This document shows, one piece after another, positions 11,234-25,085 of a DNA stretch of 25,085 nucleotides (position 1 is the stretch's first letter; each line of letters begins with the position of its first letter). A model generated the notes under the pieces. That model did not search any database. It was not told the origin of the DNA and was given only the letters and a program-made list of their open reading frames with translations. A program made the position numbers and the translations under genes. The DNA is taken from IMG/VR virus record IMGVR_UViG_2778261692_000009, positions 1-25,085 of that record, one strand, 5' to 3'. This DNA is from a virus. Taxonomy: Duplodnaviria > Heunggongvirae > Uroviricota > Caudoviricetes.

Positions 11234-13000
11234 ATGAACACCACACTGACACCCGCAGATCTCGATCCCCGTCGGCAGGCCATGCTGCTGTACTTTCAGG
11301 GATACCGCGTCGCCCGCATTGCTGAAATGCTGGGCGAGAAAGTTGCAACCGTTCACAGCTGGAAAAAACGCGACAAGTGGGGTGACTATGGGCCGCTGGA
11401 TCAGATGCAGCTCACCACCGCCGCACGCTACTGCCAGCTCATTATGAAGGAGCACAAAGAAGGGAAAGATTTCAAAGAGATTGACCTGCTGGCGCGCCAG
11501 TCGGAACGCCACGCGCGGATCGGCAAGTTTAACAATGGCGGCAACGAAGCCGATTTAAACCCTAACGTCGCCAACCGCAACAAAGGCCCACGCCGTCAGC
11601 CGGAAAAGAACGTTTTCACCGATGAACAGATTGAGAAGCTGGAAGAAATTTTCCATTCCTCCATGTTCAACTACCAGCGCCACTGGTGGGAAGCCGGAAA
11701 AACCAACCGCATCCGCAACCTGCTGAAGTCACGCCAGATCGGCGCGACCTTTTACTTTGCCCGTGAAGCCCTGATTGACGCTCTGCTTACCGGACGTAAC
11801 CAGATTTTTCTTTCCGCCAGCAAGGCACAGGCCCACGTCTTTAAGCAGTACATCATCGACTTCGCCAAAGAAGTGGATGTGGAGCTGAAAGGCGATCCGA
11901 TGGTGCTTCCTAACGGGGCCACGCTTTACTTCCTCGGCACCAATGCCCGCACTGCCCAGAGTTATCACGGCAACCTGTATCTGGATGAATATTTCTGGAT
12001 ACCGAAATTCCAGGAGCTGCGCAAAGTGGCTTCCGGTATGGCTATTCACAAAAAATGGCGACAAACCTATTTTTCCACGCCATCCAGCCTGACCCACAGT
12101 GCTTATCCGTTCTGGTCCGGTGTGCTGTTCAACCGTGGGCGTAACAAAGCCGACAAGGTGGACATCGACCTGTCCCACAGCAATCTTGCCCCCGGCCTGC
12201 TGTGCGCAGACGGGCAGTACCGCCAGATAGTCACAGTGGAAGATGCGGTGCGCGGTGGCTGTAACCTGTTCGACCTCGACCAGTTGCGCATGGAGTACAG
12301 CCCGGACGAATACCAGAACCTGCTGATGTGTGAGTTCGTGGACGATCTAGCGTCCGTATTCCCACTCAGCGAACTACAGGCGTGCATGGTGGACAGCTGG
12401 GAAGTCTGGACCGACTTTCATGCACTGGCCCTGCGCCCGTTTGGCTGGCGCGAAGTATGGATCGGTTATGACCCGGCGAAAGGTACGCAGAACGGCGACA
12501 GCGCCGGATGCGTGGTGGTGGCGCCGCCAGCCGTGCCAGGTGGTAAGTTCCGCATTCTTGAGCGTCACCAGTGGCGCGGGATGGACTTCCGCGCCCAGGC
12601 TGACGCCATCAAAAAACTGACCGAACAGTACAACGTGACCTATATCGGCATCGACTCAACCGGCGTTGGTCACGGGGTTTACGAGAACGTGAAAGCGTTT
12701 TTTCCTGCCGTCCGGGAGTTTGTCTACAACCCCAACGTTAAAAACGCCCTGGTACTCAAGGCCTACGACATTATCAGCCACCGCCGTCTTGAGTTTGACG
12801 CCGGGCACACCGACATTGCGCAGTCATTCATGGCAATCCGTCGCGCCACCACCGCCAGCGGCAACCGCCCGACCTATGAAGCCAGCCGCAGCGAAGAAGC
12901 CAGCCATGCCGATCTGGCCTGGGCAACAATGCACGCACTGTTTAACGAACCACTGCAGGGCGAGTCCGCCAATACCAGCAATATTGTGGAGATTTTTTGA
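11234..13000 (+). CDS. P: terminase ATPase (large) subunit (P2 gpP-like)
   Basis: 588 aa (P2 gpP about 590 aa); start-stop overlap (ATGA) with the portal gene. Confidence 0.93.
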   Translation: MNTTLTPADLDPRRQAMLLYFQGYRVARIAEMLGEKVATVHSWKKRDKWGDYGPLDQMQLTTAARYCQLIMKEHKEGKDFKEIDLLARQSERHARIGKFNNGGNEADLNPNVANRNKGPRRQPEKNVFTDEQIEKLEEIFHSSMFNYQRHWWEAGKTNRIRNLLKSRQIGATFYFAREALIDALLTGRNQIFLSASKAQAHVFKQYIIDFAKEVDVELKGDPMVLPNGATLYFLGTNARTAQSYHGNLYLDEYFWIPKFQELRKVASGMAIHKKWRQTYFSTPSSLTHSAYPFWSGVLFNRGRNKADKVDIDLSHSNLAPGLLCADGQYRQIVTVEDAVRGGCNLFDLDQLRMEYSPDEYQNLLMCEFVDDLASVFPLSELQACMVDSWEVWTDFHALALRPFGWREVWIGYDPAKGTQNGDSAGCVVVAPPAVPGGKFRILERHQWRGMDFRAQADAIKKLTEQYNVTYIGIDSTGVGHGVYENVKAFFPAVREFVYNPNVKNALVLKAYDIISHRRLEFDAGHTDIAQSFMAIRRATTASGNRPTYEASRSEEASHADLAWATMHALFNEPLQGESANTSNIVEIF

Positions 13001-14028
13001 TGGGAAAGAGTAAGAAGAACCGCGCTGCGGCGACGAAACAGATCCAGCATAAAAACCAGACTTCAGCCGAAGCATTCAGCTTCGGTGATCCCGTTCCTGT
13101 TCTGGACCGCCGCGAACTGCTGGACTATGTGGAATGCGTACAGATGGACCGTTGGTATGAGCCACCAGTGAGTTTCGACGGCCTGGCGCGAACCTTCCGC
13201 GCCGCCGTACACCACAGCTCACCGATTGCAGTAAAGTGCAACATTCTGACCAGCACCTATATCCCTCACCCGTTGCTCAGCCAGCAGGCTTTTTCACGTT
13301 TTGTGCAGGACTATCTGGTATTTGGTAACGCCTACCTGGAGAAACGCACGAACCGCTTCGGTGAAATTATCGCCCTTGAGCCTGCTCTGGCAAAATACAC
13401 CCGACGCGGGTTAGACCTGGATACCTACTGGTTTGTGCAATACGGTATGACAACCCAGCCGTATCAGTTCACGAAAGGCAGCATCTTTCATCTGATGGAA
13501 CCGGACATCAACCAGGAGATCTACGGCCTGCCTGGCTATCTTTCTGCTATTCCATCCGCTCTGCTCAACGAGTCCGCCACGCTGTTCCGCCGTAAGTATT
13601 ACATCAATGGCAGCCATGCAGGCTTCATCATGTACATGACCGATGCCGCGCAGAACCAGGAAGATGTGAACAATCTCCGTAACGCGATGAAAAGCGCCAA
13701 AGGTCCGGGTAACTTCCGCAATCTGTTTATGTACTCACCTAATGGTAAAAAAGACGGACTTCAGATTATCCCATTGTCAGAAGTCGCAGCGAAGGATGAA
13801 TTTCTGAACATCAAGAACGTCAGCCGTGATGACATGATGGCGGCGCACCGTGTACCGCCTCAGATGATGGGGATTATGCCTAATAATGTCGGGGGGTTTG
13901 GGGATGTGGAGAAGGCGAGTAAAGTGTTTGTTCGTAATGAACTTCTTCCTCTACAAAAGAAAATAATTGAAATTAACAATTGGATAGATAATGAGGTCAT
14001 AAAATTCGAATTTTATGACCTCATGTAA
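12997..14028 (+). CDS. Q: portal protein (P2 gpQ-like)
   Basis: 343 aa (P2 gpQ about 344 aa); the last roughly 100 nt of the gene are AT-rich and end in a perfect palindrome. Confidence 0.93.
   Translation: MMGKSKKNRAAATKQIQHKNQTSAEAFSFGDPVPVLDRRELLDYVECVQMDRWYEPPVSFDGLARTFRAAVHHSSPIAVKCNILTSTYIPHPLLSQQAFSRFVQDYLVFGNAYLEKRTNRFGEIIALEPALAKYTRRGLDLDTYWFVQYGMTTQPYQFTKGSIFHLMEPDINQEIYGLPGYLSAIPSALLNESATLFRRKYYINGSHAGFIMYMTDAAQNQEDVNNLRNAMKSAKGPGNFRNLFMYSPNGKKDGLQIIPLSEVAAKDEFLNIKNVSRDDMMAAHRVPPQMMGIMPNNVGGFGDVEKASKVFVRNELLPLQKKIIEINNWIDNEVIKFEFYDLM
13991..14024. repeat. 34-bp perfect palindrome inside the 3' end of Q
   Basis: atgaggtcataaaattcgaattttatgacctcat is its own reverse complement (verified base by base); it encodes the last residues of Q (EVIKFEFYDLM). 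Confidence 0.9.
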
Positions 14029-14044
14029 CTGAATAAATATAATC

Positions 14045-14073
14045 AGGTAATGACTAAGCTGAAGTCATTACCT
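14045..14073. terminator. stem-loop (11-bp stem, 7-nt loop) between convergent Q and OLD-like genes; candidate terminator
   Basis: aggtaatgact-aagctga-agtcattacct; the minus-strand side is followed by a U-rich tract, and the stem overlaps the OLD-like stop codon. Confidence 0.4.
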
Positions 14074-15994
14074 CTCTAATCTCACTAATCCACTCTGGAA
14101 CACTATTTTCTTCCGCCATTAATTCAACATATCTTTTTGCGAATAAAAACTTATTATTTCCATCATCAAAAAATCTATTTATGGCATTTTTTTCACTAAC
14201 TCTGAGATCAAGAGCTGAGTAAGATTCCAGATTATCACTTGGAGCATCAATATTATTAATGAAACTTAAATAATCGTAATCACCAGCAAATGACAATAAG
14301 GTCTGGTAATAGATTTTTGCGTTCAAAACATCCTCTATCTCAGTTGCAGGCGATACCGGATTTGAGTCTATCTTAACTAAGATCGCCCTGTTTTTAGACG
14401 AATCATAAACAAATCTTTTACAATGTAATCTTTGATATGTTCCGACGTCATATCTGACCAACTGGCTATCAGTATCAGCTAACAAATATATATTTCCGGT
14501 AATCTCCCCTTCGACATCCTTATAGCAGGCAGAGAGATAGTTATATATTTTTTTAATTTCCGACGCCCCCCCAACAGGTACAATACGAAGATTATGATTC
14601 TTTATCAAATCCTTAAAATATGCTGAAAGATAAATTCTTTCCGATGAACCCTCACAAATCAACCAATTATATGGTTTCTCACCTGTTGCACTAGATAATA
14701 ATGACTGAGTAAAATCATTCATACTTTTAATTCTAATATCAAATGGTAACTTTCCCCTACTATCTCGAACAAGTTGTTTTATTTCTTCCCGGTAAGATGC
14801 TAAATTGATCAGATCAAAAAGATGCTCATTATTTTTTTTAGTTATTATTGTAACAGTTCCCTTTTCCAAGGTGGGGAGAAAACCATACCAATGAGAGGAA
14901 AACAATAGTTGCCTACATCCTAAACTTAGTTCTGATAACGCTTGAAATTGTTCAAAACAAGCAGACATGTGCAATGAAGACTCAGGCTCATCTATGGCTA
15001 TGATTAAATTATCACTATTACTTCTATGCTTTGTCAGCAATGCATGCGCAACATCAATAATAGCCTTCTGCTTTTCCCCCGAACTCAAATTACTAATTTC
15101 TAAAAAATGCTCGCCATTGTGGGTTTTATGTAATTTTCTGACGTTAAAAAACGCTTGTATAATTAAGTTATAGACTTCTTTTTTTTGAATTCTTTTTTGC
15201 CTATCCGAAGGCGTTCTATACGTATAGTTAACTAGCTTCGTTGAGATATCTTCAAGAAATCCGCTTAGTTCTCTGTTGATTTCTCCAATTTTTGACTCAC
15301 CAACTATTCTATCAAGAATTTCATGCAGCGATTCACCCATCAATACTTGAGTTCCAATACTCTCAAGCTTAGTAAAAACCTCAGTATCAATCTCTTTTGG
15401 TATATATAAATATTCTAACTTACCAGTGATATAATCAAATAAAACTTGAAAATGTTTAGCTAACTCTATACCTTCACTTAACTTGAATCCGGCACCAAAT
15501 ATATCTTTTTCCATTATAGTAGATAGACTTCTACCTGCTAAAACAGATAATGACATATTATTATTATGAAGGCGTCCAATAGGAATAATTAACTGCCCTT
15601 GCATATCATTTCGTGCAAAAAGTCTATCACGATGACTTATAAAATTTTCAAGAATAGTTTTTGTTTGTGAGTTTGTAGCATCCTCTAAGCTAACTTCCCT
15701 AGCTAAAGCATCTAGCGTTTTTGCAAAAGGGAGTGTCTCAGAATCAAAAAAATCCTCCTCCAATATAAAAACCGGTACAATATGTGGGCTGGTTTTTTCT
15801 ATGCCGCTCTTTTTGACAGCTGTATTATAATTCCACTCTTTAGCATTAAATATTACATCCAATGCCTCAAGTATTGAGCTTTTCCCTATCCCATTATTTC
15901 CTAAGAAACCGCTAAAATTTGGAGCGTCTGTCAAAGGAATATAATTTATGCCTTGATATGTTTTGACGTTACGGATAAACAACCCGGCTATCAT
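14054..15994 (-). CDS. OLD-family nuclease-like protein (N-terminal ABC/AAA ATPase plus C-terminal TOPRIM)
   Basis: Walker A GNNGIGKSS; signature-like SSGEKQ; Walker B LIIAIDEPESSLH; C-terminal LICEGSSE...IVPVGGASE...YLLADTDSQ collinear with recalled P2 Old TOPRIM motifs (LLVEGKTE...IVAVDGKG...ILADCDF). Likely start is Met29 at 15994 (MIAGLFIRNVKTYQ, AAGGTAGG ribosome-binding site); ORF track extends to 16078. AT-rich. Confidence 0.8.
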   Translation of the reverse strand: MIAGLFIRNVKTYQGINYIPLTDAPNFSGFLGNNGIGKSSILEALDVIFNAKEWNYNTAVKKSGIEKTSPHIVPVFILEEDFFDSETLPFAKTLDALAREVSLEDATNSQTKTILENFISHRDRLFARNDMQGQLIIPIGRLHNNNMSLSVLAGRSLSTIMEKDIFGAGFKLSEGIELAKHFQVLFDYITGKLEYLYIPKEIDTEVFTKLESIGTQVLMGESLHEILDRIVGESKIGEINRELSGFLEDISTKLVNYTYRTPSDRQKRIQKKEVYNLIIQAFFNVRKLHKTHNGEHFLEISNLSSGEKQKAIIDVAHALLTKHRSNSDNLIIAIDEPESSLHMSACFEQFQALSELSLGCRQLLFSSHWYGFLPTLEKGTVTIITKKNNEHLFDLINLASYREEIKQLVRDSRGKLPFDIRIKSMNDFTQSLLSSATGEKPYNWLICEGSSERIYLSAYFKDLIKNHNLRIVPVGGASEIKKIYNYLSACYKDVEGEITGNIYLLADTDSQLVRYDVGTYQRLHCKRFVYDSSKNRAILVKIDSNPVSPATEIEDVLNAKIYYQTLLSFAGDYDYLSFINNIDAPSDNLESYSALDLRVSEKNAINRFFDDGNNKFLFAKRYVELMAEENSVPEWISEIREVMTSA

Positions 15995-16084
15995 ATCTAT
16001 ACCTACCTTGGAATTAAAGAATGCTTTAGCACTTTGAAAACTTGCTGCAAATGATAACAGCATCGACATGGTTTGCAACGCGCG

Positions 16085-16489: not shown

Positions 16490-17020
16490 ATGGCTACTAC
16501 CAACTGTATTACTGTACTTACTGCTCGTGGTTTAACAGAGATTTTGAACACAGGGGGAAGCCAAGCATGGAGACTTGACGCCAGCCATGCAGCTAAGCAC
16601 GAATATTTAGTTTGTGTACAAAATTCGAGAAAGGACTGGGGATCACAAGAAGCAAAACATCATCATGCTTTTATGATCGGTCGAATCTCGGGAGTAAGCA
16701 GGGCTCCAGAAAACCCTAAACGCTGGATCATAAACATCAATTCTTATGCTGAAATTGACATCCCAGGACAATGGGATGGCAATCGGAATCCCGTATCTTA
16801 TCGCAACCTCAAAGACATTGGCATTGAGGCTGACAAGTTGGAATTTAAAGCTCTTCCAAAATTAACCCCGACTAATTCGATTGTCGATCAAGCGGGTGAT
16901 GAGTACGAAGAAGAAGAAGAAAATGTAGTTAAGCCGTTAACACTTCAGGAGGCAAAAGCAGGGCTAGCCCTATACTTTGGTGTTAATGAAGAAAATATTC
17001 AAATAACTATACAAGGTTAA
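16490..17020 (+). CDS. hypothetical protein (176 aa, acidic C-terminal tract)
   Basis: ORF preceded by about 390 bp of AT-rich non-coding DNA; contains DEYEEEEEN; no family recognised; opposite strand to neighbouring phage genes. Confidence 0.5.
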   Translation: MATTNCITVLTARGLTEILNTGGSQAWRLDASHAAKHEYLVCVQNSRKDWGSQEAKHHHAFMIGRISGVSRAPENPKRWIININSYAEIDIPGQWDGNRNPVSYRNLKDIGIEADKLEFKALPKLTPTNSIVDQAGDEYEEEEENVVKPLTLQEAKAGLALYFGVNEENIQITIQG

Positions 17021-17286: not shown

Positions 17287-17520
17287 TTAATGCAGCCAGC
17301 TGTCGTCTTCCCACACCTTCTGCATAATTTTCATCACTTGTTTTCTTTCTTCGTCCAGTTGCAGTCCGGTCAGTTCCACACCATTAGAGCTACCTTTACG
17401 GATACGAATTACCGCTTTGGGATACAGGGGGCGCAGATTGCGGTAAAGCTCGGATTCAAGGGCGTCCAGAGTAGACTGGCTAATTTTCTGCTCTTTATCG
17501 ATCATTATTTCAATGCGCAT
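17287..17520 (-). CDS. DinI-family protein, Tum-like SOS-induced antirepressor candidate
   Basis: From the internal Met at 17520 (MRIEIMIDKEQKISQSTLDALESELYRNL...VWEDDSWLH) the protein resembles E. coli DinI (MRIEVTIAK...ALAGELSRR...TWESADDWF); GAGGTGG ribosome-binding site upstream; downstream of a LexA box. Confidence 0.8.
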   Translation of the reverse strand: MRIEIMIDKEQKISQSTLDALESELYRNLRPLYPKAVIRIRKGSSNGVELTGLQLDEERKQVMKIMQKVWEDDSWLH

Positions 17521-17530
17521 AAAAGCCACC

Positions 17531-17719
17531 TCAACTGATGACATCCATTGAGCGGTTGTATTCGTGGATTCTGATCTTTGCCATGAGTTCATCAGTCAAT
17601 TCAGAAACCCACTGCAGAGCCAGCCCCTTCTCTTCATCACTACACTCACTAGCCGCTACAAGCTTAAGAAAAAAATCAATGCGCTGGAGCTTCAAAGACT
17701 CCAAAAAATAGTCCTGCAT
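17531..17719 (-). CDS. small hypothetical protein, first gene of the LexA-controlled operon
   Basis: 62 aa from the ATG at 17719 with a perfect AGGAGG ribosome-binding site; its stop lies 11 nt upstream of the DinI-like start; different reading frame from the DinI-like ORF. Confidence 0.5.
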   Translation of the reverse strand: MQDYFLESLKLQRIDFFLKLVAASECSDEEKGLALQWVSELTDELMAKIRIHEYNRSMDVIS

Positions 17720-17872: not shown

Positions 17873-20287
17873 TTAATACAGGTTCCGCCACTTATCATCT
17901 TCCCGCAAACGCTGGTTCCGATAGAAGATACGCAGGCCTGCTCCTGACGGAATACTGCCGCCGCGAAGGAGTAAATCGACCTCTTTCTCGCTACCATCAA
18001 ATCCTCTGGACTTCAGCTCATAGACGAGCTGCAGTCGCTGATGGTCTGTAATTCGCTGTTTGTAGTCTTTACGCCGTTTCGGTTTAACCAGGCGTAACCT
18101 TGCTGCCAGTTCCCAGCGCTCTTTTTTGCTCTTACTGTGCAGGTAATCGTGCAACTCCTTGTCATCCATGCGGGTAATGTCCGTTCTAGTGCCCCCATCA
18201 GCTGATTTATCTTTCTCCTGTTGGTTCAAATTTTCAGCAAGGGGACAGTTATTGCCACGAGTCCAAGGGGCGCAAGCGCCCTGGTCGGCTGCCGCCTCCT
18301 GAACGTCAACGGCTTTACGAACCATTTTCCACTTCACTGCATGAGTGCAGATCTTGCCCTCTGCAATGGGTGACCAGATGCCATAAATACGAATGCCGTG
18401 ATCGCCATAGGCGGTCGGCTCTTCGTTGATTTCATAAGCGGTTCTGATGAGGTGATATTTACGGGGAACCAGTACGCCGCCCTGCTTCATGATGTAGGTG
18501 GCAAAACAACCAGCATCAGCAGCAGCCAGGATGGCATCAAGGCGCGGGTTATCCAATACCGGCGCACCTGCTTTTTTGTCCCCCTTTTGCCTTACCGCCT
18601 GACCAGCCAGCAATCGCAGTTCACGGTAAGCCTGACGCCCCGGAATGCCAAAGAAGCGGAATTGCTGAACACGATGCAAAGACGCCCAGGCATTCACGTA
18701 TTCAGCGTTATCACGCAGAGATTTACCCGTTTCCTTGCTGATCTCGCCAGCCAGACCACGCCCGTCAATGTTCTTACTGATGTATTTCGCTATGTAGCTT
18801 GTCGGCGTTCCTTTGCGCGGGTTAATCAGCTCAGACTTAAAGCGCGGCCCCGTGTTATTGCCCAGCTCCTCGCGGTCTTCACGGATAGCAAACTTACGCA
18901 ACAATGCTGTAATGGCGCGGCGGTCTTTTTTGCGCATGAAACACAACAGGTGCCAGTGAACTGTGCCGTCGTGATGCGGCTCAGCCACCCGCACGCCATA
19001 CCAGCGCAACCCGGCTTTGTGCATCGCCTTACGAAATGCAGCAAACATACCGACCAGATAATCGCTGCTTTGTCTTACCGTCGCATTTGTCCAGGTCGGG
19101 TTGGGCCTGCCGTTATTTAGCGTGGAATGGAAACGTGACGGACAGGTGATGGTGTAGAAAACGGCGCAGTCACCGCGCATTTCCGCGATAAGCTCCAGAC
19201 CTTTAACACAGGCCATCATCTCATTGCGGCGATGCGCAGGGTTGCTGCTGCTGGCGTTTACCACATCCTCCATGTCTAGCGTGTCGCCGTCTTCGTTCAC
19301 CAGTTCATGAGAACGGAAAAACTCCAGCGACTTACGGCGCTGCTCACGTTTATGCAACACGGCTTCATAGCTGACATAGGGAGATGCTTTTTTGCTGACA
19401 AGGCAGACAGCACGCAACTGCTCTTCCCGCCATTCGCAACGCATCTTCCATAATTTCCGATACCACCAGTCGGCGCACAACATACGCGCCAGCGAACCCG
19501 GAATGAGTTCATAGGGCACGGGTTTACGGCGGTTTCTTTTCCGACGGAGTTGCTCAAACGCAGGCGGGATGACATCCAGACGCAGGGTTTCCGCTGCCAC
19601 CCTTTCCCATGTATTGCGGATTTCTTCTGGCTTAACGTCATCGGTGGCATACAAATCGCCACAAGCGGCATCAAGGCACATACTCATATGCGCAGCTACC
19701 AGGGTGGACAGGCGTTTCACCTGATCCTGACTCATTTCAGGCAGGATCAGCAGGCCGTCCAGCCCTTCATGGCTTGCCATAAAGCGAAAAGATGCAGATA
19801 GCTGACTGTCGCGTACATGCTCCAGTCGTTCCAGACATGGCTTAATCGTCTCACGTAAATAGCGGGAATAAGCCTTTGGCCTGCCCAGGCTGCTGAAGTA
19901 TTCAATACGTTGCATCAGCGGCTTGCTGATATGGGAAGGCTGGGCGTTGACGTCCGCCAGAATGACCATATCCGGATTAAAACGCTGCTGCTCATGCGCC
20001 AGCTTTGCCCGACTAATGAGCTTATCCTGTTCCATTTCGCGCTGGACAGGATCACGGGATTCATTAAAGAAATAACGCTCCCAGACCTGATCACTCAGCG
20101 CCTCACGGCGCAGCTGTTCCTGCTCGTTATCGGCAGCGTACAGAGTGATCAGGTTTGAAAGCGTAGAAACCGGCGCAACTTCCACCGGGTCCAGATAAGG
20201 GTTAATGGCCTTTTTCGAGCTGTTCCATGAGAACGATGCGGCAGCTTCGTTAAAGCCGCAGCAGTTGTTCATATCGGCATGACTCAT
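17873..20287 (-). CDS. A: replication initiation endonuclease (P2 gpA-like, rolling-circle HUH family)
   Basis: 804 aa; HUH-like motif (VHWHLL) and paired active-site tyrosines (YIAKYISK), as in P2 A; start overlaps the Dam stop. Confidence 0.9.
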
Positions 20288-22178: not shown

Positions 22179-22694
22179 TCACAGCAAACCAAATGAAGCA
22201 CCGAGGCCAGTCACGGTATCAACTGCACTCGCCATCGCAGGATTAGCCTGTAAACGGGCCTGCAATGAAACAGCCGCCAGCGCCATCAGTCGTGTTACAG
22301 AGTTAATGCTGCTGATAGCATCACGACGACCGGCACAGGTTTTTACATCGCCAGACACCGCACCTGCAGCAACACGCCCGATCTCTGCGGTTGCACTCAT
22401 GACGTAATGTGGCAGTTTCTCTTTTGCCACCTCATTAATCGGTACACATGGCAGACAATGAATCTGTGCCAGAAAACCATCTACCAGCGTTGAATCTTCA
22501 GTCAGATCGGTAAGCAGCCAGATTTCTGGTGCGGTTAATAAATGAGGCTGAGCTGGGTTCAGCTTGTTCCGCAGAATCTGCACATTCATGCCTGCACGTT
22601 CTGCCAGTTGCACCAGATTGTGGCGCAGTGCAAATGCACGACAGGCTTCATCAAAATGTGGATGTTTGGAAACTTGGTAATCAAACATGGTCAA
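22179..22694 (-). CDS. cII: phage regulatory CII-family protein (186 CII-like)
   Basis: 171 aa; [45 protein letters not shown]...[23 protein letters not shown] matches my recollection of the CP76/CII family; second gene of the early lytic operon. Confidence 0.7.
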
Positions 22695-22720: not shown

Positions 22721-22942
22721 CTAATTAAGGTTTAGATTGCATTCTGAAAGCGCATCAACGGTCATTGCTGCTATGTTGATCATCACTTTTTCGCGTTTTT
22801 TATCTTTGCGCAGACGGTGACGGATAAGGCGTCCATCAGCCAACATGTCATTGATGGTATCGATGGATAGCCCTGTCAGCTCGCTATAGCGTTCAATAGT
22901 CACATGAGGCGTGGTAAGAGTGATTGAAATGTTAGGTCTCAT
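22721..22942 (-). CDS. Apl/Cox-like small DNA-binding protein (excisionase / early regulator)
   Basis: 73-aa first gene of the early operon, divergent from cI; helix-turn-helix-like segment ([25 protein letters not shown]); call rests mainly on position and size. Confidence 0.5.
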
Positions 22943-23067
22943 GATGCAACATTCCTCGTTTAATGATGATTAATCAGGACGAATACGGATCGTTTGTATT
23001 TTGTGAACACCATAAACATACGATCGCACGTTGAAATCGTCAAGATAAAAGTTCACTTGGAGTGACC
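22943..23067. promoter_or_regulatory. lysis-lysogeny switch region (early lytic promoter, cI promoter and operators)
   Basis: Intergenic region between divergent apl-like and cI genes; contains an imperfect inverted repeat GGATCGTTTGT ... ACATACGATCG that may be operator half-sites. Confidence 0.5.
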
Positions 23068-23637
23068 ATGAATTTGGAGAAAGGCGGACGAGGCGCCATA
23101 GAGCGCATGGTAGAAGCTTATGGATTCAAGACTCGACAGGCGTTGTGCGATCATTTAGGAATCTCTAAAAGTACACTCGCCACACGCTACATGCGTGACT
23201 CATTCCCAGCAGAATGGGTAATCCAGTGCGCCCTTGAAACAGGCACCTCGCTTAATTGGCTCACAACCGGGCATGGTTCAAAGCAAACTTCAGGTAATAC
23301 AAATACTATGGAAGTTGCTAAATATGTATTATCTGATGGGGCCTTGTGTGAAGACGGTTTTTATATTTTCGATAGAGAATTTCTACCGTCGGCATTCAAG
23401 AATCTTTTTGTAATCACAGATAATAATTCTGAATTTATTTGTGATAAGGAATTTGATGATATACGTGATGGTAAATGGGTAATAAGTATTGATGGCGAAA
23501 TAACGATCCGTGACATTACTCGTTTACCCGGTGGAAGAATCTTCGTCGAGGGTGGAAACAGAGCCTTTGAATGTAAGATAGAAGACATTGAAATAATTGG
23601 TAAAATTATAAGTTTAACAGTCAAGTATGTTAAATAG
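23068..23637 (+). CDS. cI: CI-type immunity repressor (186 CI-like)
   Basis: About 190 aa; N-terminal helix-turn-helix-like region (QALCDHLGISKSTLATRY); ATG at 23068 with a GGAG ribosome-binding site (ORF track uses GTG at 23062); AT-rich; upstream of int. Confidence 0.7.
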   Translation: MNLEKGGRGAIERMVEAYGFKTRQALCDHLGISKSTLATRYMRDSFPAEWVIQCALETGTSLNWLTTGHGSKQTSGNTNTMEVAKYVLSDGALCEDGFYIFDREFLPSAFKNLFVITDNNSEFICDKEFDDIRDGKWVISIDGEITIRDITRLPGGRIFVEGGNRAFECKIEDIEIIGKIISLTVKYVK

Positions 23638-23652
23638 TACCGGGAGGAAATT

Positions 23653-23844
23653 ATGCTTGGTAAGGTATTTTTTGTGGTTTTGTCATGTTCTTTGTTATTA
23701 AACCCACTAGCTACCTATGCTAGAAATTATCCCTGCTCAGGGAAAAAGGGAGGTGTTTCTCACTGTACCTCTGATGGCAAATTCGTTTGCAATGATGGAA
23801 CTATTAGTAAATCCAAAAAAATCTGTACTAAAAACTCACGATAA
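23653..23844 (+). CDS. small secreted cysteine-rich peptide (63-aa precursor)
   Basis: Strong ribosome-binding site (GGGAGG, 5-nt spacing); predicted signal peptide [23 protein letters not shown]; mature part of about 40 aa with four Cys; AT-rich; between cI and int. Confidence 0.5.
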
Positions 23845-24032
23845 CTTTTGCTTTTATATCTGCGCCTAAAATAAAAATGAGCCACAGGTTAACCGCAAAA
23901 GTTACATGATCACATAGCAAAAAGAATAGCCTACTTCATTATGGCTTCAGTGAGATGTATGGTCGCAGGATTTCATACATTGACACTGGTTATACATACA
24001 GTAAAAATGCTCTCTATTGGAGGGCATTTTTT

Positions 24033-25085
24033 ATGGCTGTACGAAAACTCACCACAGGAAAATGGCTTTGCGAATGTTACCCCGCCGGACGTAGTGGGCG
24101 TCGTGTGCGTAAACAATTCGCCACCAAAGGCGAAGCACTGGCTTTTGAGCGTCACACGATGGAAGAAACCGAAGCAAAGCCCTGGCTAGGTGAATCAGTG
24201 GATCGTCGAACACTGAAAGACGTGGTTGAGCTATGGTTCAAACTACATGGTAAATCACTGACTGCTGGGCAGCATGTCTATGACAAATTGCTGCTGATGG
24301 TTGACGCTCTGGGCAATCCCCTTGCAACTGATCTAACCTCTAAAATGTTTGCCCACTATCGAGATAAACGCCTGACAGGTGAGATCTACTTCAGCGAGAA
24401 ATGGAAGAAAGGAGCAAGCCCGGTCACCATTAACCTGGAGCAAAGCTATCTAAGTAGTGTTTTTAGCGAACTATCCCGCCTGGGCGAATGGTCGTATCCG
24501 AACCCACTGGAGAACATGCGAAAATTCACCATCGCAGAAAAAGAGATGGCATGGCTTACCCATGAGCAGATTGTTGAATTACTGGCTGATTGCAAACGTC
24601 AGGACCCAATTCTGGCACTGGTAGTTAAGATATGCTTAAGCACAGGCGCACGCTGGCGAGAAGCCGTAAATCTTACTCGTTCACAGGTGACCAAATACCG
24701 AATTACCTTTGTAAGAACGAAGGGGAAGAAAAACAGAAGCATCCCTATCAGTAAAGAGCTTTACGAAGAGATCATGGCGCTTGATGGGTTCAATTTCTTC
24801 ACAGACTGCTATTTTCAATTTTTATCCGTGATGGAAAAAACGTCTATCGTGCTCCCTCGCGGTCAACTCACACACGTTCTGCGCCATACGTTTGCGGCGC
24901 ACTTCATGATGTCGGGTGGAAACATTCTGGCCTTACAAAAAATTCTCGGACACCACGATATAAAAATGACTATGCGTTACGCACATCTGGCACCGGATCA
25001 TCTGGAAACGGCGCTCCGTTTCAATCCTCTGGCAACGCTGCCAAGTGGCGACAAAGTGGCGGCAGCGGTTGGCATTACCCCGTAA
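24033..25085 (+). CDS. int: tyrosine integrase (P2 Int-like)
   Basis: Internal Met MAVRKLTTGKW... with a GGAGGG ribosome-binding site; C-terminal catalytic region ...HVLRHTFAAHF...LGHHDIKMTMRYAHL; stop codon is the last three bases of the window, so attL/attR should lie just beyond. Confidence 0.9.
   Translation: MAVRKLTTGKWLCECYPAGRSGRRVRKQFATKGEALAFERHTMEETEAKPWLGESVDRRTLKDVVELWFKLHGKSLTAGQHVYDKLLLMVDALGNPLATDLTSKMFAHYRDKRLTGEIYFSEKWKKGASPVTINLEQSYLSSVFSELSRLGEWSYPNPLENMRKFTIAEKEMAWLTHEQIVELLADCKRQDPILALVVKICLSTGARWREAVNLTRSQVTKYRITFVRTKGKKNRSIPISKELYEEIMALDGFNFFTDCYFQFLSVMEKTSIVLPRGQLTHVLRHTFAAHFMMSGGNILALQKILGHHDIKMTMRYAHLAPDHLETALRFNPLATLPSGDKVAAAVGITP

Follow-up and report, generated by a model that had tools for sequence, protein, structure and literature searches.

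What is a 63-codon open reading frame (ORF) doing in the AT-rich gap between the repressor and integrase genes of a temperate phage, and is it a gene at all? The question is raised by the 25,085-nucleotide (nt) stretch of DNA analysed here (the window; positions 1 to 25,085 of IMG/VR virus record IMGVR_UViG_2778261692_000009), which holds the regulatory and early half, and some of the late region, of a 186-type E. coli prophage in the P2 family. An earlier note on this DNA had described a small secreted cysteine-rich peptide encoded at 23638-23954 and had read it as a lysogenic-conversion factor. The 63-amino-acid (aa) ORF with its ribosome-binding site, the signal-like N-terminus, the mature part of about 40 aa with four cysteines and the AT-rich setting between cI and int are all confirmed from the sequence; the noted range contains the ORF together with about 110 nt of untranslated 3' sequence that carries a hairpin. 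The ORF is a real gene of an already named but uncharacterised family, YdcA, and its mature part bears the signature of very strong purifying selection. We propose that the product is a periplasmic binding module co-expressed with the repressor CI, for which the role of an exclusion-type lysogenic-conversion factor is preferred; for this proposal, whose mechanism we infer, the odds are about even (a probability of roughly 0.5). The gene and its parts are as follows.

23653..23844, + strand: YdcA-family gene (ydcA), 63 codons plus TAA (phrog_6000, NF007463, PF27300, WP_001513672.1)
23642..23647, + strand: Shine-Dalgarno sequence GGGAGG, 5 nt before the ATG, read from the sequence
23653..23721, + strand: predicted Sec signal peptide, residues 1-23, cleaved between A and R of TYAR, from hydrophobicity and the -3/-1 rule
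23722..23841, + strand: mature basic domain, 40 aa with four Cys, supported by invariant columns, low non-synonymous divergence (pN) and the core of the AlphaFold2 model

The YdcA family and its constrained mature domain

The protein scores 114.6 bits against NCBIfam model NF007463 (PRK10040/YdcA equivalog; curated cutoff 93) and matches phrog_6000 over its full length (3.1e-34), and a match to Pfam family PF27300 'YdcA' is precomputed for the identical protein. A recent RefSeq entry, WP_001513672.1, is named 'YdcA family protein', the label in most genomes being 'hypothetical protein'. The earlier note did not place the protein in this named family, of which E. coli K-12 carries a paralogue on its chromosome; its description of the peptide as cysteine-rich stands, and that as exported stands as a prediction. 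When 1.84 billion cluster representatives were searched with a profile, 451 clusters (50% identity) came out at E <= 0.001, and a word-indexed search with a broader alignment returned 1235 proteins. Several other assignments were discarded. GULLO2-like, the sole hit in a local Pfam scan with a copy of the database that lacks PF27300, is a sub-threshold match; the matches of the family profile to LDL-receptor class A and Pin-II inhibitor domains are no better than chance (E = 0.02 to 9); the genes called ydcA in papers on Neisseria, Bacillus and the F plasmid are unrelated and share only the name; and the UniProt name 'Conjugal transfer protein' for the cluster of this protein has no visible basis.

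Export is predicted from the N-terminus, in which K4 is the one Lys and is followed by a hydrophobic core (residues 5-21) and, by a heuristic reading, a T-Y-A-R site cut after residue 23. Across 44 homologues this region is variable and always hydrophobic, with an Ala at position -1 that is at least 90% conserved, and the median residue number of the first Cys across 171 relatives is 28. A lipoprotein was considered and rejected because the Cys of VLSC at residues 9-12 is not conserved among homologues; this motif also lies too near the N-terminus, with K4 inside the stretch that is required to be uncharged. The mature part of 39-40 aa has the cysteines C28, C38, C46 and C58 along with seven Lys, two Arg and two Asp, an isoelectric point (pI) of about 9.6-9.7 and a net charge of about +7. 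Its cysteines follow the pattern C-x9-C-x(5-7)-C-x11-C inside the motif PCSGxKGG[IV]xxC...F[IV]CxDG..S.SK..C. Ten residues (P27, K32, C38, F44, C46, G49, S52, S54, K55 and C58) are invariant in all 44 aligned sequences, and a further set (C28, S29, G30, K31, G33, G34, V35, H37 and D48) is at least 90% conserved among them. An AlphaFold2 model made with the family alignment has a confident core (pLDDT 84-92 over residues 31-60). The mature product would be a Sec-exported, basic periplasmic mini-domain, probably held by two disulfides.

The K-12 protein YdcA (b1419), predicted to be periplasmic (bioRxiv 10.1101/2024.02.12.579971), belongs to the same family and has the same architecture of a signal peptide and a four-Cys part of about 35 aa with the motif PCSGxKGG[IV]SHC. 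The two proteins are about 51% identical overall, the prophage copy having more lysines, and their genes differ in setting: K-12 ydcA is chromosomal, lies between cybB/rydC and hokB and is stress-regulated, whereas the prophage copy is part of the cI operon.

To follow selection, the window gene was set codon by codon against its prophage counterparts in Klebsiella, Hafnia, Yersinia, Haemophilus and other E. coli, and against ydcA of the E. coli chromosome. For the prophage copies from enterobacteria, the mature domain (N25-C58) has a synonymous divergence (pS) of 0.7-1.0, which is saturated, and a pN of 0.02-0.06; when the Haemophilus and chromosomal copies are compared instead, the share of its non-synonymous sites that differ is 16-21%. 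The signal peptide evolves almost freely (pN 0.4-0.65). Between the window and locus L008, a 36-residue stretch has two replacements with about half of its codons different, and the E. coli B-type allele has, relative to the window, 11 codon changes that are synonymous and 2 that are not, these 2 lying in the signal peptide. Saturated synonymous change combined with scarce non-synonymous change rules out recent transfer as the source of the similarity. The pattern is the signature of an exported protein with very strong purifying selection on its mature part, and few small peptides are likely to be as tightly constrained as this one: from one lineage to another, almost all codons change and the residues do not. 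The strength of this selection appears to be a new observation.

The same data bear on another explanation, a non-functional or chance ORF in an AT-rich spacer, for which the shortness of the ORF, its base composition and the label 'hypothetical protein' in most RefSeq genomes might speak. With curated-model matches, 451 clusters of homologues, non-synonymous substitution (dN) far below synonymous (dS) and an ORF intact in every copy examined, this explanation is effectively refuted.

Position behind cI and the cargo slot

The gene lies 15 nt behind the stop codon of cI and 188 nt before int, and is surrounded by the following features.

23068..23637, + strand: 186-type CI repressor gene (cI), 189 aa from the ATG at 23068 (Pfam Phage_CI_repr 2.8e-33, Phage_CI_C 2.7e-27; RefSeq 'phage repressor protein CI')
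24033..25085, + strand: tyrosine integrase gene (int), 350 aa (Pfam Int_N 3.2e-32, Phage_integrase 7.2e-22; phrog_1)
22179-22694, - strand: CII/CP76 gene
22721-22942, - strand: Cox/Apl-like gene
23842..23904, + strand: imperfect hairpin with 15-nt arms TAACTTTTGCTTTTA / TAACCGCAAAAGTTA, a 33-nt loop and no U tract (inverted repeat I2)
24003..24031, + strand: 13-bp stem plus U6 directly before the int ATG (wider arms 23993-24041; inverted repeat I1)

The 15-nt gap leaves no space for a terminator or a promoter; in the lysogenic operon, cI comes first and ydcA second. As the second cistron behind cI, ydcA should be made whenever the repressor is, i.e. in the lysogen, and the prophage gene is probably expressed there. 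The ORF has a GC content of 35.9% and the ydcA-int spacer one of 36.2%, compared with 40% in cI, 48% in int and 49.7% in the whole window. The stem at 24003-24031, the 3' arm of which includes and sequesters the int Shine-Dalgarno sequence GGAGGG, folds as RNA with -21.1 kcal/mol (z = -4.95; 0 of 200 shuffles equally stable), and this part next to int is conserved in P2-like phages of Klebsiella. The structure looks like a terminator, or a translational attenuator for int, and suggests a lysogenic message made up mainly of cI-ydcA, with restrained expression of int. The other hairpin starts exactly at the ydcA stop codon and is predicted to fold with -17 kcal/mol (z = -3.4). Consensus promoter and terminator scans gave counts no higher than in shuffles, the scan having missed the int-proximal hairpin, and an Rfam scan of the whole window matched no RNA family. 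A promoter-like TTGACA-17-AAAAAT at 23980-24008 overlaps the 24003-24031 stem.

The segment is common in E. coli. Positions 23000-24100 match many E. coli chromosomes at 99.9% identity, and of 5426 E. coli genomes, 648 have the window's cI allele family and 648 have the ydcA segment, which is an equality of counts only; this match of the two counts appears to be new. Roughly one in eight complete E. coli genomes has ydcA beside a prophage repressor, the genomes with the segment including BL21 derivatives and the enteropathogenic E. coli (EPEC) strain E2348/69. The gene order is cI-ydcA-KAP NTPase-int in Klebsiella and in E. coli with another cI allele, cI-ydcA-347-aa ORF-int in Hafnia and cI-ydcA-int in Yersinia; where the slot holds further cargo, ydcA remains adjacent to cI. 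A two-gene system of YdcA and the KAP NTPase was considered and dropped, the KAP gene being found also behind other genes and YdcA also alone. Where relatives carry the KAP gene, their similarity to the window stops in the 3'-terminal part of ydcA (query position 184, about 23821), slightly upstream of the hairpin at 23842-23904. The Haemophilus phages HP2 and S2 have an unannotated homologous ORF of 60 codons in the same place, a copy that appears not to have been reported before, and HP1 is without it; in HP2 and S2 the ORF and the cI stop codon overlap (ATGA), the annotated pL is upstream, and orf1(S) and int come next. A YdcA-like gene is also seen on small MOBQ mobilisable Acinetobacter plasmids, e.g. 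A. soli pGFJ6 (4066 bp; L092 640-816), where it adjoins a gene annotated TraD; the pGFJ6 gene has 76% DNA identity to the mature-domain part of the window gene.

How regularly 186-type prophages carry the gene was assessed in a census of one genome per species, in which a CI-alignment search gave 56 usable 186-type cI-int loci. A YdcA ORF is present in 3 of them, a frequency at which the gene is not required for 186-type lysogeny and which overturned the idea of YdcA as a constant partner of 186-type cI. The integrase gene directly follows cI in 17 loci, and 36 hold 0.6-3.3 kb of co-directional cargo between the two, the cI-int gaps concerned belonging to the series L031-L087; cargo is likewise found in L002 (804-2480) and L008 (5198-6529). 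Ten cargo proteins were sampled, among them PD-Lambda-1 (4e-118), PDC-S20/KAP NTPase, HEC-01, TIR-like and HEPN proteins, and the 186-like phage vB_EcoM-813R9 also has PD-Lambda-1 in its cI-int slot. Given the 36 cargo-bearing loci and the defence genes sampled, the cI-int gap is a cargo hotspot, which in the sampled loci holds mostly anti-phage defence genes. Unmatched cargo proteins of 350-480 aa (L035, L036, L037 and L016 2747-3790) are candidate new defence genes. A cI-int hotspot was described in K139-like Vibrio phages by Rousset et al. 2022 (PMC9122126), and according to a 2026 survey the integrase-primase hotspot holds 8% of P2 defence systems (PMC13586616); the hotspot, like the YdcA family and its RefSeq naming, is already known (PMC9122126, PMC13586616).

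The closest counterpart in this position is found in the Vibrio phage K139, a member of the P2 family with the order PL-cI-orf2-glo-int, in which glo is annotated 'periplasmic protein; involved in phage exclusion'; the work on exclusion by Glo is Nesper et al. 1999 (J Bacteriol 181:2902), taken here as cited in PMC4870250. Both genes lie between cI and int, are co-directional with them and encode a signal peptide, a predicted one in YdcA. However, Glo has 137 aa, is not cysteine-rich and has no sequence relationship to YdcA (hhalign 4.7%), so that the likeness is one of position and predicted compartment only. The earlier note's view of an accessory rather than core phage gene agrees with the census and with the presence of the gene in HP2 and S2 and its absence from HP1; its placing of the gene among cargo expressed in the lysogen is in line with the terminator-free gap to cI and with the defence genes, or Glo, in the slot of relatives.

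A function in the life cycle of the phage itself, be it the establishment of lysogeny, DNA delivery through the envelope or the timing of lysis, would fit the equal numbers of E. coli genomes with ydcA and with this cI type, the translational coupling to cI in HP2, and the location among late genes in Moraxella and Acinetobacter phages. It does not fit well with the 17 loci in which int directly follows cI or with the gene's presence in 3 of 56 only. Moreover, a tblastn search of a phage collection of 50,697 records gave matches confined to Moraxella, Acinetobacter, Haemophilus (HP2, S2) and Pseudomonas phages and to no sequenced enterobacterial phage, and many copies are chromosomal or plasmid-borne, outside any phage. 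A life-cycle function is considered improbable.

Fusion partners and the probable Dis2 relationship

The YdcA domain is also built into larger proteins. Its nuclease partners are SNase, Endonuclease_NS and PLD-type (PLDc_2) domains (P0094, P0151, P0152, P0174, P0177, P0219 and others); other partners are a VasL domain of the type VI secretion system (T6SS) and a PBCV basic adaptor domain (P0100 and P0198 are also among the fusions). In all these fusions the YdcA domain stands straight behind a signal peptide. Tandem forms with 2-3 copies also exist (P0064-P0068). PF27300 is combined with PF01223 in 20 of the best 120 relatives, a candidate set biased by the fusions that were included in the query. 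In the nuclease fusions the YdcA domain is an accessory enzyme module, whereas the prophage protein is a stand-alone domain; in both it stands directly behind the signal peptide. The nuclease and T6SS fusions appear to be new. Related YdcA-domain proteins of 130-148 aa close a T6SS effector island; in the 148-aa Enterobacterales form (L024-L027, 4001-4447) there is a conserved C-terminal tail, KPTCAPxYMAxKPGFTHLPIC, and the island reads Tle3-Tli3-Tli3-?-PAAR-474 aa-YdcA.

The 'toxin-like' option of the earlier note, taken here as a secreted toxin or bacteriocin-like antimicrobial peptide that harms competitors, draws on the small size, the cationic character (pI about 9.6) and the four Cys of the product, and on the related gene at the end of a T6SS effector island. 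However, ydcA is flanked by cI and int alone, with no immunity, processing or export gene beside it, and the Sec signal would carry the peptide only to the periplasm. Single-gene copies lie in core chromosomal regions among housekeeping genes, and a domain that serves as the N-terminal module of larger enzymes is better explained as a binding domain. A toxin role is regarded as very unlikely.

Among PDB entries, the only structural relative is Dis2 (Lpg0823), which belongs to Dot/Icm, a type IV secretion system (T4SS) of Legionella. Foldseek matched the two with a probability of 0.95 and 39% identity over 38 columns, at E = 0.11 and a modest TM value of 0.41; the family profile matched Dis2 at E = 3.8e-4 with the signal peptide included, and hhalign gave 88-96% for each lobe. 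The motif CxxKxGG[IV]xxC...G..VCN[DN]G..S is common to the YdcA family and Dis2, and a Dis2-like metagenomic protein has a precomputed PF27300 match. Dis2 is a periplasmic, disulfide-rich and outer-membrane-proximal protein of the Dot/Icm cap (PMC8486379); it contacts DotC, DotD and DotK and has been described as Legionella-specific and of unknown function (PMC8486379, PMC12716638). It consists of two similar lobes with five disulfides and no lysine patches, whereas prophage YdcA is a single domain with four Cys; and Dis2 is part of a T4SS, whereas prophage YdcA belongs to a P2-family prophage with no T4SS genes in the window. Homology of YdcA and Dis2 is probable, not proven. The relationship appears to be new, and it suggests where a T4SS subunit treated in the literature as Legionella-specific may have come from in evolution. 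Together with the placement and the nuclease fusions, this probable link gives concrete and cheaply testable hypotheses for an uncharacterised family that includes K-12 ydcA.

Exclusion or envelope physiology

We propose the following route for the prophage protein. A cI-ydcA message would be made in the lysogen and end at the hairpin just before int; the pre-protein would be exported by Sec to give a periplasmic basic mini-domain, probably with two disulfides; and the mature domain would bind a ligand conserved across Proteobacteria, candidates for which are a polyanion, DNA in transit for instance, and an envelope component or complex near the outer membrane. YdcA would then interfere with the entry of foreign DNA in the manner of superinfection exclusion, analogous, not homologous, to Glo of K139. 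A role at DNA entry is favoured because three secreted nuclease families share the module, because the invariant residues include two lysines as well as glycine- and serine-rich loops, and because the slot otherwise holds anti-phage genes and, in K139, a periplasmic exclusion protein.

Several observations weigh against this proposal. A search of PADLOC-DB 2.0 with YdcA found 0 families at E <= 0.01, ydcA is present in 3 of 56 species-level 186-type cI loci, the Moraxella and Acinetobacter phages place the gene among late structural genes, and many family members are chromosomal single genes beside housekeeping genes. The nuclease fusions could mean anchoring instead of DNA binding. The profile match to Dis2 is weak without the signal peptide (E = 0.038), and Dis2 itself binds lipoproteins, not DNA, and is dispensable (PMC12716638). 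The sole reported phenotypes of E. coli ydcA, which concern acid and organic-acid stress and stationary phase, point to envelope physiology and not to exclusion (PMC7642389, PMC5493296).

These phenotypes lead to the main rival, a host-benefit envelope factor. Made constitutively with CI, YdcA would be a periplasmic aid against acid, organic-acid and stationary-phase stress that raises the fitness of the lysogen and is unrelated to other phages. In E. coli W, deletion of ydcA causes sensitivity to 300 mM 3-hydroxypropionate, and ydcA is reported to be induced at pH 5 under YdcI (PMC7642389); an RpoS-holoenzyme site lies upstream of ydcA (PMC5493296), and its expression rises as cells enter stationary phase (bioRxiv 10.1101/310961). 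The chromosomal copies in housekeeping contexts and the location of Dis2 against outer-membrane lipoproteins (PMC12716638) agree with such a function. However, the slot carries mostly anti-phage systems, the recurrent fusions to secreted nucleases are left unexplained, and the published phenotypes come from single studies with no mechanism known. Since E. coli already has ydcA, the prophage copy would also be redundant unless dose or timing matters. The envelope factor is judged possible but rather unlikely, and the life-cycle and toxin roles rank below it.

The exclusion proposal can be extended into a broader conjecture, in which YdcA is a periplasmic module for binding DNA or other polyanions that mobile elements deploy in free-standing form to block or capture DNA crossing the envelope, and that has been recruited by nucleases and duplicated into Dis2. 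This extension is speculative and we hold it to be doubtful. No less tentatively, the elements concerned would be the P2-family prophages of E. coli and Haemophilus, the siphophages that infect naturally competent Moraxella and Acinetobacter, and small mobilisable plasmids. If the DNA-capture idea is true, YdcA would represent a new and very small class of superinfection-exclusion or anti-transformation factor.

A second region of the window may also hold defence cargo. A 674-aa ORF at 14054-16078 (- strand), between the portal gene (12997-14028) and gpA (17873-20287), combines an AAA_15/AAA_21 ATPase with an OLD-like TOPRIM domain and has weak PADLOC matches to AriA, AbiLi and Old. It occupies the classical old/tin defence hotspot of P2-like phages, and is accompanied by a 176-aa ORF without a family match (16490-17020, + strand) and a DinI-like gene (17287-17592, - strand).
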